From Conexivisphaerales archaeon (GTDB taxonomy: Archaea; Thermoproteota; Nitrososphaeria; Conexivisphaerales; UBA164): a DNA stretch of 58,649 bases. Below, in pieces: positions 22,853-30,161 of this stretch (position 1 is its first letter; each line of letters opens with the position of its first letter). A program made the position numbers and the translations under genes. The stretch is from the NCBI GenBank assembly GCA_030756715.1, contig JAVBJD010000003.1, forward strand, positions 1 through 58,649, in the 5' to 3' direction. The notes below the pieces were generated by a model, which saw nothing but the letters and a program-made list of their open reading frames with translations, searched no databases and had not been told where the DNA came from.

Positions 22853-24429
22853 GTGCTGCCTGCATCTCTGATAGCAGTGCTTGAGCTTTCATTACTTCTT
22901 TTATTGGGAAAACTGGGCGAAGAAAGTTTTTCAGCTCTTGATCTTACGCCTTTTGTAGGAGCTATACTGATAGGGCTCTTGATAGGACCGGGTATCTTTA
23001 AAGTTTTTTATCCATCTCCATACATATCTGATTTTATCAATCTTGGGATTGTTTTTATACTCTTTATGGCGGGTGTCGAAGAAACACGTGGAGGAAGCGA
23101 AATAAGAAAGCCAGCGCTTGCAGGAATAATAAATTTTATCATCGAGTACGTTATCATCTATGCGCTCCTTACCTACCTAGGCTTTGAACCCCTGGTGTAA
23201 TCAATTTTAGCTATAAGCCTTGGAATGGTAAGTGCAGGTCCGTTTCCCCGGACTATACAAGAGATATCTTTTAAAAGTGATGTAAGTCAGCACAGAAAAC
23301 TTTTTGTTGAGGTTCTTTTTAACGAGATTTCGGCAGTTGTGATTTTTTCTTTTTTTTTGCCATCGACGCTTTTAAAAACACCCTCGATATGTTAGAGGGC
23401 ATCGTGAAACTGTTAGTAGTCATAACGATCATTTTACTTTTTGGAAAATTTATAATCGGGAAAGTGTTATTTTTTGTTGAAGCTAGATTCAGGACGTGGG
23501 AGGCTCTTTTTGCTGTAGTGATATCGATTATTCTTTTGTTTGGTTTTATAGCGGACCTCGTAGGATTTAACTCAGCTATTGCTGCCTTTTTTCTGGGCGT
23601 GTTTGCTTCTGAATATATTCTTAACAATGCGTACCTTTTAGAAAAGCTCAGAGCTTTAACGTACGGGTTCTTTGAACCGATGTTTTTTGCAGGACTTGGT
23701 CTTTATTTTGTAAGCATAAACAGTTATGTAATATTTTTAGGTCTTACCGTTTTTGCAATTTCTATCACCGCAAAAATGTTCTCAAGCATTTTTACAAGCA
23801 AATTGGTAAACGTTAGCATAATCAAAAACTTTTTTGCTATAGCACATGAAGGAGGGGTTGACGGTGCAATACTCTTGACGGCACTGCAACTGAGTTTGAT
23901 AAGTTCCAAGTTTTACTCTATAGCTTTGATGGCCGTCATGATAATGAGCGTGATAGCGCCTCTAGGTTATAAAGGTAAAAGCCCCCTCTCTAGACCAAAG
24001 CCTGAACCATCGATTAAGTTCGTTACCTATGAGCTTTCAAAGAGCAGCGCTGAGGATCTTTCTCGCGTTCTTCCGACAGTTGCTGTGAGCGAGGACACGA
24101 CTGTTGAAGAAGCAGTAAAAAAAGCAGACCAACTTAACACTAGGGTCCTAGTAGTTGTTAATAAAGAGGGAAAACCAATAGGCTATTCTACTGTTCATGA
24201 CCTTTTCAAGATGGTTTCATTTGGACAGGGAGATGTTCGTATGCAAGATGTCTTTCTCCTGCCGGTTCCAAGAATTTACAAATCCGCTTCGGGTTCTGAA
24301 GTGCTAGACGTTTTTAAAATGAGCGATGCGCAAGTAGTTGCTGTAATAAATGAACGCGGGGAGCTTGTAGGAACAATACTGGAAAAAGAAGTTCTCAGAT
24401 ATATACTAAAAGGAGAAAAAAAGACTTAA
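22853..24429 (+). pseudogene. disrupted CPA2-type cation:proton antiporter with C-terminal CBS pair
   Basis: The 115-aa N-terminal fragment ends at an in-frame TAA (23198-23200). The same frame then continues as antiporter-like sequence ('SILAISLGMVSAG...VEVLFNEISAVVIFSFF'). A -1 frame change inside the T6-C-T9 tract (23343-23358) is needed to join the 346-aa C-terminal ORF, which carries TM helices and two CBS motifs. Confidence 0.7.
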
Positions 24430-24489
24430 AAAACCCAATTAAAATTAAGTTAAGAAAGGTTAAATTACCCTTTTTGTTTAATTTTTACC

Positions 24490-25818
24490 ATGAAGGTTAT
24501 AGTTGTAGGTGGCGGAGCCGCTGGGATGAGCGCGGCTTCAAGGGTCAGAAAGCTTTTACCGCAATCCGAAATAAAGGTATTCGAAGAGTCGTCGTACGTT
24601 TCATATGCTCCTTGCGGCATACCTTATTATGTTGAAGACCTGGTAAACGATATAAATGCATTGGTAACTTATACGCCAGAATTTTTTAAGAAAGAAAGGA
24701 ACATCGACGTACACATAAAAACAAAGGTAACCAAGGTAAACCTAAGCGCAAAGGAGCTGACTACAGTCTCAGATGAAGGTGAAAAAACAGAAAGCTTTGA
24801 CTACATTGTGCTTTCAACCGGCGCAATTCCATTTGTGCCCGATAAAAGATGGCTCGAAGCAAACCACGTCTATGCTCTGCGTCATCTTGAAGACGGCTAC
24901 ACTTTAAAAAACGACCTGAAAAACCTTCAGAACGTTGCTGTAATTGGAGGGGGTTATGTAGGCGTAGAAATGGCTGAGGCACTATCAAAAATAGGTAAAA
25001 AAGTAACAGTTTTTGAGATGCGTCGATTGATGCCAAACCTAGATCCAGAATATTCTCAGATTATTAAACAGGAAATGGAAAAAAGGTCGATAAAGGTGAT
25101 AGAGGGCTTCACAGTTAAAGCTGTGGAAAACAGCGGAGAAAAGGTAAGAATTGTTGGAGATACTGAGCAACCTCTCTTTGACGCCGCGGTTCTGGGCCTT
25201 GGCGTTAGACCAAACGTGGAGCTCGCAAGGTCTATGGGATTGAAGCTCGGTGAGACTGGAGCTATTTGGGTTGACGATAGAATGAGAACGAGTGAGCCAA
25301 GCGTCTACGCTGCAGGCGATAACGTAGAGGTAAACGACCTTGTCATTAAAGGGAGAAAGAGGTATGCGCCTTTTGCCCCAGAAGCAAACAAAGAGGGATA
25401 CATAGCTGGCTCAAACATAGGGAATCAGAACATAACATTTCCAGGTAGCGCTGGAAGCGCCATAACGAAATTTTATGATTTAGAAATAGGAGTTGTCGGC
25501 ATAACTGAAGATGAAGCAAAAAAATACGGCATTGAAGCTTTTCCCGTGAAGATCAAGCATAACGCAAAAGCAAGCTATTATCCGCCGCAAGAAGAGGTAT
25601 ACCTGAAGATTGTTTTTGATAAAAAAAGGAGAGTTCCGCTGGGAGGCCAGGTAGTCGGTAAGAACGTGTGGGGAAGGTTGGCATACCTTTCTTTGGCCAT
25701 AGAAAACGGTATAACTGTTGACAGAATGTTCTTTTCAGGAGTACCATATGCCCCTCCGTTTGCGCCGGTCTGGGATTCATTGATCGTAGCTTCGAGGATT
25801 TTCTATGAACGCGTATGA
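24490..25818 (+). CDS. NADH oxidase / CoA-disulfide reductase family flavoprotein
   Basis: 442 aa. Motifs are 'KVIVVGGGAAGMSAA', the redox Cys in 'VSYAPCGIPYY', a second dinucleotide fold 'VAVIGGGYVGVEMA', and 'VYAAGD'. Confidence 0.8.
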   Translation: MKVIVVGGGAAGMSAASRVRKLLPQSEIKVFEESSYVSYAPCGIPYYVEDLVNDINALVTYTPEFFKKERNIDVHIKTKVTKVNLSAKELTTVSDEGEKTESFDYIVLSTGAIPFVPDKRWLEANHVYALRHLEDGYTLKNDLKNLQNVAVIGGGYVGVEMAEALSKIGKKVTVFEMRRLMPNLDPEYSQIIKQEMEKRSIKVIEGFTVKAVENSGEKVRIVGDTEQPLFDAAVLGLGVRPNVELARSMGLKLGETGAIWVDDRMRTSEPSVYAAGDNVEVNDLVIKGRKRYAPFAPEANKEGYIAGSNIGNQNITFPGSAGSAITKFYDLEIGVVGITEDEAKKYGIEAFPVKIKHNAKASYYPPQEEVYLKIVFDKKRRVPLGGQVVGKNVWGRLAYLSLAIENGITVDRMFFSGVPYAPPFAPVWDSLIVASRIFYERV

Positions 25819-26362
25819 GCTAGCTGACATCAAAAAGCTCAGAAAAGCTCTAGGTCTTTCTCAGAGGGATTTAGCAAAGCTTTCGGGCTTGAGCCAGTCA
25901 TATATAGCTAAAGTAGAGCAGGGGCATATAGATCCAAGTTACAGCAACGTTCAAAAAATTTTTAAAGCTCTTGAAAATATCAGATCCCTTAACGTAAAGG
26001 TAGCAGCTGAAATAATGACGAGAGATTTAAAATACGTGTTTGTGGGATCTAAGGTTTTGGATGCTATAAAGATCATGCAGGATAATTCAATAAGTCAGGT
26101 CCCCGTTTTAACTGAAGATGGTAAAGTTGTTGGCATGATCAGCGAATCGAACTTGGTACAGCACATGCTCAAAGGAAAAGACATTAAAAAAATTCAGGAA
26201 AGCAAAGTTGAAGAATTCATGGACCCGCCTTATCCCATAGTTGATGAATCAACGCCAGTAAACCTTATAATGAGCATACTGAGCTTTTATAATGCTGTTC
26301 TCGTGTCGCATAAGGGAAAAGTGATAGGTATAATAACCCGTTCTGACATACTTAAAGGATAA
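25805..26362 (+). CDS. XRE-type HTH transcriptional regulator with C-terminal CBS-domain pair
   Basis: 'LGLSQRDLAKLSGLSQSYIAKVEQG' is an HTH motif. Two CBS motifs follow ('IMTRDLKYV...SQVPVL...VVGMISESNL' and 'FMDPPYPIV...VIGIITRSDIL'). It overlaps the upstream gene by 14 nt. Confidence 0.75.
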   Translation: MNAYELADIKKLRKALGLSQRDLAKLSGLSQSYIAKVEQGHIDPSYSNVQKIFKALENIRSLNVKVAAEIMTRDLKYVFVGSKVLDAIKIMQDNSISQVPVLTEDGKVVGMISESNLVQHMLKGKDIKKIQESKVEEFMDPPYPIVDESTPVNLIMSILSFYNAVLVSHKGKVIGIITRSDILKG

Positions 26363-26363
26363 G

Positions 26364-27548
26364 ATGATTATCAGTGCCAAAAAGGTTCCGAAATATGAAC
26401 CCTCTATGGAATTTGTCGAAAGAAAAGGGAAAGGACATCCCGACACTATATGCGACGGTATCAGCGAAAAACTGAGCGTCGCCCTAAGCAAATACTATTT
26501 GGAAAAAACAGGAAGAATACTTCACCATAACGTAGACAAGGCGATTTTGGTAGGCGGACAGGCAAGGGCATGGTTTGGAGGAGGCGAAGTTATAGAACCG
26601 ATATACTTGATGCTGGTAGGCAGGGCCATAGGTAGGCTTGACAAAGAAGATACTGTTCCAATAGGAAGGCTCGCTGTAACTGCGGCCAAATCATACATAA
26701 AAGAAAACCTGAGGTATCTGGATGCTGAAAGCCACCTGATAGTTGACTACAGGATTAAGCAGGGGAGCGCGGACCTTGTAAAGAACTTCGAGGCAGGAAA
26801 CGATATACCCCTAGCAAACGACACAAGCTTTGGAGTGGGATTCTATCCGATGACAGACGCCGAAAAGCTTGCGCTCGAAACTGAAAGATTTATTAATTCA
26901 GAAGAGGGAAAGAAACTTTTCCCGCAGGTTGGAGAAGACATAAAAGTAATGGCGCTAAGACACGAAAAGGAGATAAAGTTAACGATAGCCGCGGCCATGA
27001 TATCTGAGCTGATAAAAAACAAAGAAGATTATCTGGAAATCAAACGTCAGCTATCCATCAAGCTGCTGGAGCTTTCATCAGAAATAACGAAGATGAAAGT
27101 AGACTTGGTGATCAACGGTGCAGATAAACCAGAAAAGAACATATTTTACCTAACAGTAACTGGAACGAGCGCAGAAAACGGCGATGATGGTCAAGTAGGC
27201 AGGGGCAACAGGGCAAACGGCTTGATAACGCCTTTCAGGCCAATGTCTCTTGAAGCAACAGCTGGAAAGAACCCTATAAGTCACACAGGAAAGCTTTATT
27301 CAGTTTTAGCCATGGATATAGCAAAAAAGCTGGTAGAAGAAAACAAGCACATATCAAACGCTAACGTATACATGCTAAGCCAGATCGGATCCCCAATAAC
27401 CGAACCCCAGTCTGTTTACGTTGAAGCGAGTGCAGATATATCTGATGAGGCGGTAAGCAGCTATGCGGAAAGCATAGTCAAAGAAAGCCTGCAGGAAGCT
27501 CCCAAGCTTTGGCTTAAAATACTCGAAGGCAACGTATCCCTCTATTAA
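26364..27548 (+). CDS. mat: S-adenosylmethionine synthetase, archaeal type
   Basis: 394 aa. 'VERKGKGHPDTICDGISE', 'DTSFGVG', 'TGTSAENGDDGQVGRGNRANGLITP' and 'EATAGKNP' are hallmark archaeal MAT motifs. Confidence 0.95.
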   Translation: MIISAKKVPKYEPSMEFVERKGKGHPDTICDGISEKLSVALSKYYLEKTGRILHHNVDKAILVGGQARAWFGGGEVIEPIYLMLVGRAIGRLDKEDTVPIGRLAVTAAKSYIKENLRYLDAESHLIVDYRIKQGSADLVKNFEAGNDIPLANDTSFGVGFYPMTDAEKLALETERFINSEEGKKLFPQVGEDIKVMALRHEKEIKLTIAAAMISELIKNKEDYLEIKRQLSIKLLELSSEITKMKVDLVINGADKPEKNIFYLTVTGTSAENGDDGQVGRGNRANGLITPFRPMSLEATAGKNPISHTGKLYSVLAMDIAKKLVEENKHISNANVYMLSQIGSPITEPQSVYVEASADISDEAVSSYAESIVKESLQEAPKLWLKILEGNVSLY

Positions 27549-27549
27549 A

Positions 27550-28257
27550 TTGAAAATATATATAGAGCTGCCTGAAATTTATTTATCAAATTTTAATGAA
27601 GTCATCAATTATGCTACGTCATTGAGAAATACAATAAACGGAGTTTTTGTTCCAGATCTCCCATTAAATAAGCCAACTTTGGACGCATGCGCTTTTGTGG
27701 GCACACTGAAAGAGAAGCTTAATGATAAAGAACTGGTGATAACGCAATCTGTGGGTCACAGAAGCGTTGTCGCAAATAAATCACGAATGCAGTGCGTTAA
27801 AAAGATGGGCATAGAAAAGATGCTTTTGGTGCAGGGGCCCTACTATTTTACAAAAGTTAAAGACGTTTTAAATTATGCCGTAGAAAGGTTCATCGTAGGA
27901 TCAGTTTTAAACGAAAAAACTTTAGAGTCAAGGATAAAATCCGGGGTTAAGTTTTTTGTGACCCAGTTGTTTCCAAGCATAGGTGAACTGAAGATAGCGG
28001 AAAAGGTTTCCGGTTTTGATTTTTTCCTTTTGATGGGAATCTCTGATAAAAAAGAAGACTACGCTAAATTAAAAGAAAAAGGTTTCAACGTTCCTGAGGA
28101 AATACTGAAAGCTGAAAGCGTACAGAACGGGATAGAAACCTATTATAATGATGTAGCGGACCTTTTGGGGCGGAAGCCGGACATATATTTGGTTCCGCTA
28201 AAGAAGAAAATTGGCAATTCTTTCATCTACGAATTTATTAAAAATATACAAAAATAA
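27550..28257 (+). CDS. short methylenetetrahydrofolate-reductase-like (MetF/MetV-like) TIM-barrel protein
   Basis: 235 aa with a TTG start 1 nt after the mat stop. 'GIEKMLLVQGP' and 'KSGVKFFVTQLFPS' resemble MTHFR 'GI.NILALRGD' and 'AGADF.ITQLFFD'. The similarity is weak and from memory. Confidence 0.4.
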   Translation: MKIYIELPEIYLSNFNEVINYATSLRNTINGVFVPDLPLNKPTLDACAFVGTLKEKLNDKELVITQSVGHRSVVANKSRMQCVKKMGIEKMLLVQGPYYFTKVKDVLNYAVERFIVGSVLNEKTLESRIKSGVKFFVTQLFPSIGELKIAEKVSGFDFFLLMGISDKKEDYAKLKEKGFNVPEEILKAESVQNGIETYYNDVADLLGRKPDIYLVPLKKKIGNSFIYEFIKNIQK

Positions 28258-28313
28258 GTTTTAATTTTTAAAATTTTTCTCTTATTCGGTTCGAATAGCG
28301 GAAATGTAAATTT

Positions 28314-28411
28314 TATGTAAAAAATCAGGCAGAATTATGAATAATTTATGCATTCTGGGACTGATTTTTTATGAAGTATTTCATTATTTAAGCCGAAAAT
28401 ATGTAAAAAAT
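28314..28411. repeat. 12-nt direct repeat pair TATGTAAAAAAT in the ilvB upstream spacer
   Basis: Identical copies at 28314-28325 and 28400-28411, read directly from the sequence. Confidence 0.55.
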
Positions 28412-28484
28412 ATTTTGAAAAATAATTTTTAATTATGTTTTTATATTGCTAAAATTTATAAAACGTCTTCTTTATATCAAAGTA

Positions 28485-30161
28485 ATGGCGTCTTATTTAA
28501 GTGGGGCTCAGGCCTTAGTAAAGGCTTTAGAAAGAGAAAAGGTAGAGGTAATTTTCGGGATACCGGGAGGTGCAACTCTAACTTTTTACGATGCTTTAAA
28601 AGATTCTAGCATAAGACACGTGCTCGCCAGACATGAACAGTCTGCCGCTCATATGGCCGACGGTTATGCAAGAGCGTCAGGGAAAGTTGGCGTCTGCACT
28701 TCAACATCAGGCCCAGGCGCAACAAACCTTTTAACAGGAATAGCTACAGCTTACCTGGATTCTTCTCCAGTAATAGCCATAACTGGACAGGTTGCCAGAG
28801 ATTATATAGGTAAAGACGCATTTCAGGAAATAGACACTGTTGGAATATTTACACCAGTTGTCAAGTACGCTTTTCAGCCTTTATCAGTTTCGGAAATACC
28901 TTTTGATGTTAAAGCCGCATTCTACATAGCCACCACAGGGAGGCAGGGGCCTGTTCTGATAGATCTTCCAAAGGATGTTCAGGCGGAAAAAGCAGAAATA
29001 GAGTTCCCTGAAAGAGTTGAAATAAAGGGCTATAGACCTTACGTAAGACCGGATCCAGAAGTTATAAGAGAGGCCGCTAAACTGATCATACAGTCGCAGA
29101 AACCGGTTATACTTGTAGGTGGAGGAGCGGTTAAGTCAGAAGTTGGGCCAAAGGTTGTTGAACTGGCTGAAATGCTGATGATCCCCATTGCTAGCACTTT
29201 GATGGGGAAAGGTGCTATACCTGAAAACCATTTCCTTGCAGTCGGGCCTATAGGTATGCACGGGACCTATCATGCTAATACGCTCATAATGGAAAGCGAC
29301 CTAGTAATCGGAATAGGTGTCAGATTTTCAGACAGGACCACGATGGACACAAAGGAATTTTCAAAAGACAGGATGATACTGCACTTTGACATAGATCCTA
29401 CAGAAGCAAGAAAAAATATAGTAAACGAATTTCCGGTAATAGGCGACTTAAACGAATCAATTAGCATGCTGGTTTCTGAAATCAGGAAGATGATGCCCTA
29501 CACAAAAGACTCTCCATGGTACAAGAGGGTAAAGGAGCTGAAAGAATATTATGAAGATAAAATATTTGGAGAAAACGTTCTGAGTCCGTTCATAATAAAA
29601 AAGATCAGGGAGATTCTGCACGAAGATGATATAGTTACTACAGAAGTAGGGCAGGCTCAGGCATGGGCTGAGCTTTTTTACAAAGCGTTGAGGCCAAGAA
29701 CCTTCATAACAAGCGGAGGGCTCGGGACCATGGGTTTTGGATTTCCGGCAGCAATAGGGGCAAAAGTCGCAAAATTTGATAAAACTGTAGTCGACATAGC
29801 CGGCGACGGAAGTTTCCTGATGACTTCAAACAGCTTGGCAACCAGCGTAAAGGAAGGAATACCCGTTGTAGTGGTAATTCTGGACAACGCAGTGCTTGGA
29901 ATGATAGCTCAGTGGCAACGTTTGGTTTATAATAACAGGTACATAGCCTCTTCGCTCGGTGAAACACCTAACTTCCCAGCTCTGGCAAAAGCCTACGGTG
30001 CTGAAGGGGTAAGGGTAAACGGATTGGAGGATTTTGAGAAGTATTTTAAAGAAGCTGTAAAAAGCGATGTAACCTATGTGATAGATGTTCCGATATCTCC
30101 TGAGGAAAACGTCTTCCCCTTCGTTCCAGCAGGCAAAAGTCTGAAGGAGATGATAGTGTAA
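28485..30161 (+). CDS. ilvB: acetolactate synthase large subunit
   Basis: 'GAQALVKALEREKVEVIFGIPGG' and the TPP-binding 'IAGDGSFLMTSNSLATSV...VVVILDN' are present. ATG 28485 is preferred over the TTG track start at 28446. Confidence 0.9.
   Translation: MASYLSGAQALVKALEREKVEVIFGIPGGATLTFYDALKDSSIRHVLARHEQSAAHMADGYARASGKVGVCTSTSGPGATNLLTGIATAYLDSSPVIAITGQVARDYIGKDAFQEIDTVGIFTPVVKYAFQPLSVSEIPFDVKAAFYIATTGRQGPVLIDLPKDVQAEKAEIEFPERVEIKGYRPYVRPDPEVIREAAKLIIQSQKPVILVGGGAVKSEVGPKVVELAEMLMIPIASTLMGKGAIPENHFLAVGPIGMHGTYHANTLIMESDLVIGIGVRFSDRTTMDTKEFSKDRMILHFDIDPTEARKNIVNEFPVIGDLNESISMLVSEIRKMMPYTKDSPWYKRVKELKEYYEDKIFGENVLSPFIIKKIREILHEDDIVTTEVGQAQAWAELFYKALRPRTFITSGGLGTMGFGFPAAIGAKVAKFDKTVVDIAGDGSFLMTSNSLATSVKEGIPVVVVILDNAVLGMIAQWQRLVYNNRYIASSLGETPNFPALAKAYGAEGVRVNGLEDFEKYFKEAVKSDVTYVIDVPISPEENVFPFVPAGKSLKEMIV

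Follow-up and report, generated by a model that had tools for sequence, protein, structure and literature searches.

The nearest characterised protein of the architecture studied here is CcpN (YqzB) of Bacillus subtilis, a regulator with an N-terminal helix-turn-helix (HTH) followed by two CBS domains, which represses gapB and pckA and acts as a promoter-binding repressor (PMC7028823). A like protein is encoded in a stretch of 58,649 nucleotides from a hot-spring archaeon of the Conexivisphaerales (contig JAVBJD010000003.1, positions 1 to 58,649; this whole stretch is called the window below), where its gene directly precedes mat, the gene of the archaeal-type S-adenosylmethionine (SAM) synthetase, in a row of four genes that opens with a gene of the NADH oxidase family (nox) and closes with a gene for a 235-residue protein resembling methylene-tetrahydrofolate reductase (MTHFR). 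Since genes of homocysteine, methionine or SAM metabolism adjoin its relatives as well in many other archaea, we regard this HTH-CBS protein as a strong candidate for a regulator of archaeal methionine and SAM metabolism. CcpN differs from it in being bacterial and in having gluconeogenic targets, whereas the archaeal clades around the window's regulator show ties to methionine and SAM genes, and no CcpN model is found among the NCBIfam matches of the window's regulator, whose HTH is of the XRE type (HTH_3).

Functional analogues exist in Proteobacteria, where MetJ, with SAM as its corepressor, and SahR, which responds to S-adenosylhomocysteine (SAH), sense metabolites of the methyl cycle and act on methionine and SAM genes. 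Both are confined to bacteria and work without a CBS sensor, and their folds, ribbon-helix-helix in MetJ and ArsR-type in SahR, are unrelated to the HTH-CBS regulator. It was mainly by comparing genomes, for gene neighbourhoods and for operators, that the two were defined, as is done here for the HTH-CBS family (PMC4239095). An archaeal CBS pair has been solved with SAM and with methylthioadenosine (MTA) in MJ0100 of Methanocaldococcus (3kpb, 3kpc), an enzyme of the HcyBio/DUF39 type whose CBS pair is a structural match to that of the regulator and whose orthologs are head-to-head neighbours of the regulator gene in one Bathyarchaeial family; in MJ0100, however, the pair is fused to an enzyme and not to an HTH. 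For the 235-residue protein the best structural match is Mfr, the flavin-independent MTHFR of mycobacteria (MSMEG_6649; hMfr in M. hassiacum). The two share a Gln at the end of beta-6 and, as far as position alone tells, a catalytic-type Glu at the end of beta-1, and neither strictly needs a residue of the Asp120 type, but the likeness is structural only, at 15-16% identity, and Mfr is the longer protein (~290 against 235 residues).

Among published work we found neither a link between HTH-CBS regulators and the methionine or SAM genes of archaea nor an account of how archaea regulate methionine and SAM synthesis. If our proposal is right, an HTH-CBS family tied to several steps of the pathway would fill this gap in a testable manner.

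Linkage of the regulator gene to methionine and SAM genes

The genome to which the window belongs, as contig 3, is of the Nitrososphaeria type, 1.26 Mb in size and 91% complete. Searching 40 relatives with three of its proteins (the regulator, the SAM synthetase and the 235-residue protein) gave a full-length regulator ortholog in 23 genomes of the order, and in all 20 genomes that hold both genes, spread over three GTDB families, regulator and mat are directly adjacent and co-directional with mat downstream. In the remaining three of the 23 the archaeal SAM synthetase was not found with the window query, a bacterial-type MetK lies on another contig and the old locus still holds the regulator. 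From an otherwise conserved locus, one genome of the order has lost regulator and mat together, a case of co-loss, and one family has mat followed by an MTHFR homolog with no regulator ortholog. The gaps on either side of mat are 1 nt in all eight genomes of the genus and measure 2 to ~10 nt in two further genera of the family, so that the close spacing is no accident of one locus. The block of nox, HTH-CBS gene, mat and 235-residue gene, followed by ilvB, is found in three genera of the window's family, the only ones in which nox lies upstream of the regulator, and HTH-CBS with mat but without nox occurs in one further genus of the family and in two other families. The ancestral block of the order appears to have been HTH-CBS, mat, possibly an MTHFR homolog, and Trm112, with a gene of the inositol-monophosphatase family on the opposite strand.

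Sequence searches met the same HTH plus CBS-pair architecture in Bathyarchaeia, Thermoplasmata, Pyrococcus and Micrarchaeota, a family that carries the JGI annotation 'predicted transcriptional regulator with C-terminal CBS domains'. When 250 Thermoproteota genomes, drawn evenly, were searched with a profile of the family and archaeal SAM synthetase was placed in them with PF01941, ~135 proved to have a full-length member, and 78 regulator loci, a part of the matches, were taken up and scanned with a panel of pathway proteins. Outside the window's order, 27 of the 78 adjoin a gene of the methionine pathway, these linked loci coming from nine GTDB families: 13 lie beside a SAM synthetase gene (11 head-to-head across spacers of mostly 95-223 bp, one ~850 bp off and one ~1.4 kb off), 10 are head-to-head with a pyridoxal phosphate (PLP) enzyme of Cys/Met metabolism, two are head-to-head with an HcyBio+CBS enzyme of the MJ0100 type, and two are followed by a PALP enzyme, once with HcyBio beyond. 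By our own estimate, adjacency by chance to a few target genes in a genome of ~1,500 genes is below 1% per genome. Outside this sample of the phylum, the regulator gene lies 1 kb from a Cys/Met PLP enzyme gene in a Thermoplasmataceae genome, and between the gene of methionyl-tRNA synthetase and TruD/Trm1 in a Micrarchaeota genome. The original prediction of a SAM-sensing control unit at this locus was staked on enrichment of the gene pair across archaea; the pair proved strongly enriched, and the wider family adjoins other homocysteine and methionine genes as well.

In a maximum-likelihood tree of 54 regulators, those linked to SAM synthetase fall into at least three clades with well-supported branches between them and in two gene orientations: the window's order (co-directional), one Bathyarchaeial family (divergent) and a large Bathyarchaeial clade (divergent from mat). 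The linkage is thus either ancient and repeatedly kept or was gained several times, and whichever the history, it looks selected.

The regulator and its candidate operators

The window's protein has an N-terminal XRE-type HTH (PF01381 HTH_3, 58.3 bits against a cut-off of 23, residues 9-56) and a tandem CBS pair (PF00571, 87.3 bits in two stretches). Its AlphaFold2 (AF2) model, with a predicted local distance difference test (pLDDT) score of 91.6, comprises an XRE domain of four helices joined through a long helix to the CBS pair, with helices at residues 8-15, 20-27, 31-39 and 46-62; a Foldseek search with this model found no solved structure that spans the whole HTH plus CBS-pair architecture. 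Among 24 diverse homologs the HTH residues S30, Q31, A35 and E38 are invariant or nearly so, and G175, I176, T178 and D181 of the CBS2 motif G-I-I-T-x-x-D are invariant. CBS2 alone bears the canonical ribose motif G-h-h-T-x-x-D, CBS1 being without the conserved Asp position. Motifs of the GIITRSD type bind the ribose of adenosyl ligands. The helix variant of the window, SQSYI, is found in the window's family and in a few distant members.

Two palindromes upstream of regulator genes in other clades are candidate operators of their cognate regulators, because they co-vary with the predicted recognition helix, and this co-variation is the best evidence obtained here. ATAAC-N5-GTTAT, with conserved arms and a varying centre, lies just upstream of the regulator start at 13 loci of the large divergent clade, where the SAM-synthetase side of the shared spacer carries a conserved B recognition element and TATA box (BRE/TATA), and it lies upstream of no other regulator gene among the loci compared; it occurs only with the recognition helix SQAH(I/V) (13 of 13 loci). 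At ~16 loci from the remaining half of the tree the palindrome is ATTCC-N4-GGAAT, often extended to TATTCC-N4-GGAATA and placed 25-40 nt ahead of the regulator start; the spacers that carry it lead to one of three genes on the far side (that of SAM synthetase, of the Cys/Met PLP enzyme or of HcyBio-CBS), and it is present at the Micrarchaeota locus as well. This second palindrome occurs only with helices of the SQS(L/F)I type, many SQSLI proteins being without such a site. The type of palindrome tracks residues 32-33 of the recognition helix in these clades, and such helix-tracking candidate operators offer a readable specificity code for the HTH-CBS family.

Other repeats were noticed in spacers of the same kind. 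In one Bathyarchaeial family (loci L034, L035, L037, L042 and L016) the BRE/TATA of the SAM-synthetase gene is immediately preceded by a further palindrome, ATGCA-N6-TGCAT, which is unlike ATAAC-N5-GTTAT and may belong to another factor. The spacers of L043-L046 and L049 hold, besides ATTCC-N4-GGAAT, an ATAAC-N3-GTTAT (TATAACGNNGTTATA) nearer to the PLP-enzyme gene, with arms as in the palindrome of the other clade and a shorter centre. In genome G116 a sequence one mismatch from the clade palindrome, ATTCGCATAGGAAT (L114:1196-1209), overlaps the start of an unlinked bacterial-type metK, a single case that may be due to chance.

The MTHFR-like protein, the proposed mechanism and its alternatives

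The AF2 model of the 235-residue protein (pLDDT 91.1) is a (beta-alpha)8 barrel, so that the MTHFR-like fold on which its assignment had been made to depend is upheld. In Foldseek it ranks closest to mycobacterial MTHFRs that work without flavin (7wmz, 7wmx and 8bgr; template modelling (TM) scores of 0.75-0.80) and next to the MTHFRs of T. thermophilus, E. coli, yeast and human (TM 0.69-0.74), and the family profile has only MTHFRs as its top PDB matches (E 3e-5). The family is tiny, with 9 proteins in a word-index search and 6 representative clusters among 1.8 billion proteins in an exhaustive one; two distant members tie it to MTHFR, one scoring above the Pfam threshold and one being a fusion of homocysteine S-methyltransferase with MTHFR. 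The proteins that take its place behind mat in the genomes of relatives reach 72.6, 59.1 and 18.3 bits against Pfam MTHFR, and the first two, from sister families, pass. Nothing supports a 'MetV-like' non-catalytic subunit, the other identity suggested for the protein, and its homology to the MTHFR catalytic barrel rules this label out.

For its active site we followed the scheme of four positions set out by Gehl et al. 2024 (PMC11094777). Q139 (position C), within FVTQLF, aligns with the ITQ of the yeast, human and E. coli enzymes and thus with the pterin-binding Gln183 of E. coli, and E6, at the end of strand 3-6 (beta-1) in the model, is a plausible catalytic Glu of position A, matched by position only; the equivalent catalytic residues are Glu28 in E. 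coli, Glu9 in hMfr and Glu6 in jMer (PMC11094777). Within the family, E6 and Q139 hardly vary. A search of the 91%-complete genome gave no further MTHFR homolog; the same genome encodes a split MetE and an S-adenosylhomocysteine hydrolase. The likeliest identity of the protein is a trimmed methylene-tetrahydropterin reductase, possibly one independent of flavin. Phylogenetically it stands beside archaeal MTHFR homologs of canonical appearance which keep the Asp, and hence any flavin independence of the 235-residue protein would be convergent. A protein without the Asp needed by flavin-dependent enzymes raises the possibility of a minimal flavin-free archaeal methylene-pterin reductase, which, if true, would be the archaeal convergent counterpart of the mycobacterial Mfr.

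We propose that nox, the HTH-CBS gene, mat and the short MTHFR-like gene would form a single operon transcribed from a BRE/TATA promoter ~30 nt before nox, and that the HTH-CBS protein would represent an archaeal transcription-factor family in which an XRE-type DNA-binding domain is joined to a CBS-pair sensor, the clades nearest to the window's regulator being dedicated to the homocysteine, methionine and SAM pathway. The CBS pair would take an adenosyl ligand at its sole canonical site, GIITRSD, the ligand would alter the binding of a dimer to a palindromic operator at or near the promoter, and the outcome would be feedback on two genes, the regulator's own and the adjoining one of the pathway. 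In the window's lineage the regulator would have been built into the mat operon, regulator and SAM synthetase coming from one transcript, and the 235-residue protein would supply the methyl-pterin donor to the split MetE. In this scheme we infer DNA binding, the identity of the ligand, the direction of regulation, an operator in the window's lineage and catalysis by the 235-residue protein. Taken as a whole, a methyl-cycle regulator with an adenosyl-ligand sensor inside one nox - HTH-CBS - mat - MTHFR-like operon seems to us slightly more apt to be right than wrong. A broader proposal, that the HTH-CBS family is the missing protein-based SAM sensor of archaea, with the part that SAM riboswitches and MetJ have in bacteria and with control of homocysteine, methionine and SAM genes through palindromic operators that track two helix residues, acting here as an operon homeostat together with a minimal flavin-independent methylene-pterin reductase, is a tentative one, which we would sooner expect to fall short than to hold. 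The window adds to the family an operon-embedded form of the regulator, and the regulator outlives the swap of the archaeal SAM synthetase for the bacterial-type enzyme.

Several observations weigh against this explanation. No operator was found for the SQSYI helix of the window, either in the 24430-24489 spacer or elsewhere in the lineage: both palindromes occur at or below chance in the window, and neither is promoter-proximal at the loci of the order. The window holds one 1-mismatch match to ATAAC-N5-GTTAT, inside nox, against 2.5 expected by chance, and the matches to ATTCC-N4/5/6-GGAAT in the window's genome are background-like, the lone consensus-like one (contig 22, position 47672) lying between unrelated genes. 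No promoter of the window or of its order carries the variants ATTAC-N5-GTAAT or GAATATTC; the regions before nox (family f1) and before the regulator (families f2 and f4) share no palindrome and only BRE/TATA-like boxes; inverted repeats in 24300-26500 are unremarkable; and by eye the upstream regions of the split metE, ahcY and trm112 in the window's genome have no obvious common element. In genomes whose regulator carries a palindrome, no convincing copy was found upstream of unlinked SAM-synthetase genes. Linkage has its limits as well. The regulator is kept where an unlinked bacterial-type MetK has replaced the archaeal SAM synthetase, and is therefore not strictly a mat-only regulator; ~50 of the 78 loci, from ammonia oxidisers (mostly with bacterial-type MetK) and roughly 18 other GTDB families, are without the pathway neighbours and adjoin a recurrent MarR-type partner, HypF, PcrB, TiaS or cysteine-desulfurase-like enzymes; the regulator gene of Pyrococcus abyssi adjoins proline-dehydrogenase-like flavoproteins; and the counts of linkage are not phylogenetically independent, the linked genomes being related.

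As for the ligand, the sequence and fold of the CBS pair do not single one out. Foldseek with the regulator model returns generic CBS pairs only, about equally good across ligand classes, whose ligands are SAM or MTA (MJ0100, human CBS), AMP, ADP or Ap4A (AcuB, CBSX2) and c-di-AMP (DarB, CbpB), and in sequence MJ0100 is a more distant CBS relative than the top match (E 1e-5 against 3e-13). A basic residue following the Thr, as in GIIT-R/K-x-D, would suit a phosphate-bearing ligand too. What favours SAM (or SAH, or MTA) is solely that the adjoining genes are those of its pathway; the simplest guess would be SAM, with SAH, MTA and ATP as alternatives. Of the SAM/SAH/MTA-responsive transcription factor originally predicted, the pathway linkage and the helix-matched palindromes of other clades speak for the regulator, while the lineage has yielded no operator and the ligand cannot be read from the protein.

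Some of these observations would also suit a transcription factor that senses the energy charge (ATP, ADP, AMP) or another nucleotide instead of SAM, in the manner of CcpN, with mat as its target for being a consumer of whole ATP. CBS pairs of the same fold bind AMP/ADP, Ap4A or c-di-AMP, the Arg or Lys after the Thr of the ribose motif is conserved, many members of the family adjoin genes unrelated to methionine, and the regulator persists once the linked mat is lost; we nevertheless consider such a sensor unlikely, as the genes beside the nearest clades cover three or four steps of one pathway, among them homocysteine synthesis, the Cys/Met PLP enzyme and SAM synthetase, which argues for a pathway-specific effector and not for a general energy signal. 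Quite improbable, in our judgement, is that the adjacency reflects an inherited gene order without regulatory meaning, the protein acting in trans on unrelated genes or on a partner protein. Mutual relatedness of the linked genomes and the failure to find an operator in the window's lineage would be expected under inherited order, and CBS-only proteins often act on partner proteins, but it would have to accommodate linkage in at least three separated clades, in two orientations and with several pathway partners, palindromes that co-vary with the recognition helix, and the invariance or near-invariance of S30, Q31, A35 and E38, which argues for a working DNA-binding domain.

The reductase activity proposed for the 235-residue protein has to be weighed apart from the regulator. 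The protein lies below the Pfam thresholds of MTHFR (PF02219) and MTHFR_2 (PF19345) and has no Pfam match, it is 50-60 residues shorter than the characterised enzymes, and P97 (VQGP) stands at position D, in place of Asp120 in the LRGD motif of E. coli, a mapping confirmed by alignment to the E. coli enzyme. Pro97 is shared by the window's genus and one genus next to it within the family, the Asp (GD) being kept by longer relatives in sister families, and in E. coli MTHFR the change Asp120Asn leaves 0.3% of kcat (PMC11094777). This proline, the truncated barrel under the Pfam thresholds, a further Foldseek match to 3ijd, an uncharacterised protein solved with methyl-tetrahydrofolate bound, and the joint occurrence of nox with the short form in three genera are what one would expect of a protein that is no reductase, that binds pterin or folate or serves as a scaffold without catalysis, or that needs a flavoprotein partner such as the nox product. 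We find this doubtful while granting it a serious share of the probability: E6 and Q139 would hardly be so nearly invariant, no MTHFR homolog apart from this protein was found in the genome, whose MetE is split, the co-occurrence with nox amounts to a single phylogenetic event, and in the flavin-free Mfr the residue equivalent to Asp120 (position D) is not strictly conserved (PMC11094777).

The locus and its surroundings

The chaining of the four genes at near-zero spacing was borne out to the base at every coordinate and junction (Table 1). Read base by base, the nox TGA (25816-25818) and the HTH-CBS ATG (25805) give a 14-nt overlap, the HTH-CBS TAA (26360-26362) is followed after 1 nt by the mat ATG (26364), and the mat TAA (27546-27548) is followed after 1 nt by TTG 27550 of the 235-residue open reading frame. 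This TTG is the earliest start codon in its frame and is needed to take in the first beta-strand of the protein, and the motif KSGVKFFVTQLF, quoted for this protein as MTHFR-like, is found in its sequence. The mat product matches PF01941 with 508.9 bits (cut-off 27) over residues 5-389 of 394 and NCBIfam NF003366 with 472.8 bits, exceeding the cut-off of 435; the nox product carries Pyr_redox_2 (1e-56) and the Pyr_redox_dim dimerisation domain of Pfam, and its top NCBIfam match is CoA-disulfide reductase, under the cut-off of that model. As ~190 nt of non-coding DNA (28258-28445) separate the 235-residue gene from ilvB, the operon probably ends at 28257.

Table 1. Positions of the genes, motifs and residues discussed; coordinates are those of the window unless a locus (L) or contig is named.
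Feature	Position	Strand	Description
Putative BRE/TATA promoter element	24453..24468	+	AGAAAGGTTAAATTAC; ~22-37 nt before nox ATG
nox-family gene	24490..25818	+	First gene of the operon; flavoprotein of the NADH oxidase / CoA-disulfide reductase family with Cys42
HTH-CBS regulator gene	25805..26362	+	185 aa; XRE-type HTH residues 9-56 and CBS pair residues 68-184
Predicted recognition helix codons	25895..25921	+	Residues 31-39, QSYIAKVEQ; helix H31-39 in model
CBS2 ribose-binding-type motif codons	26327..26347	+	Residues 175-181, GIITRSD
mat, archaeal-type methionine adenosyltransferase (SAM synthetase)	26364..27548	+	394 aa; PF01941 E 1e-152
Short divergent MTHFR-fold barrel gene	27550..28257	+	235 aa; no Pfam/NCBIfam match of its own
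Key residues of the 235-aa protein	E6 codon 27565-27567; P97 27838-27840; Q139 27964-27966	+	
Split methionine synthase	G000 (window's genome) contig 104 = L122:660-2587	minus	308-aa Meth_synt_1 homolog overlaps 334-aa Meth_synt_2 catalytic domain by 4 nt
Trm112-like genes	L024:3132-3518, L025:4739-5104, L026:3854-4237, L028:2858-3238, L029:2906-3271		PF03966

The spacer 24430-24489, which had been considered as a binding site of the regulator, looks like an ordinary BRE/TATA operon promoter. The box is kept in 7 of 8 upstream regions of the genus while its flanks diverge, and the only other conserved piece upstream of nox in the genus is a T-rich segment beside the start. The distance of the box from the nox ATG suggests a leaderless or short-leader transcript. 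Within the operon, Shine-Dalgarno-like sequences lie upstream of the HTH-CBS start (GAGGA) and of the mat start (AAGGA) and may serve these internal genes, and no such sequence was found before TTG 27550. An Rfam scan of 24000-28700 at E up to 1 gave no RNA family, and scans of the region for terminators and bacterial-type promoters gave matches near chance.

A Trm112-like zinc-ribbon gene (PF03966, methyltransferase activator) follows the regulator/mat/MTHFR block throughout the order and still adjoins the regulator where mat has been lost; in the window's genome it lies on another contig (C19:1770-2009). The pattern of a bacterial-type MetK (PF02773) elsewhere in the genome, with no archaeal SAM synthetase found by the window query, is seen in G019, G022, G030 and G032 of the order and beyond it in G038 and most of family f7 as well as in G100, G116, G194 and G261 (f19). 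The HTH-CBS regulator is retained among these genomes, G019 excepted, and the pattern looks like repeated non-orthologous displacement within Thermoproteota.

At loci from several families with no methionine or SAM neighbour (L072, L063, L065, L069 and L092) the HTH-CBS gene is followed by that of a MarR/TrmB-type winged-helix protein of 150-250 residues, a recurrent pair of two regulators. In the ammonia-oxidiser family f7 an HTH-CBS homolog with the helix STSMI is present in 34 of 34 sampled genomes, and at the one locus of this family that was inspected (L030, genome G038) it lies beside the genes of a glyoxalase-fold protein and a TPR protein.

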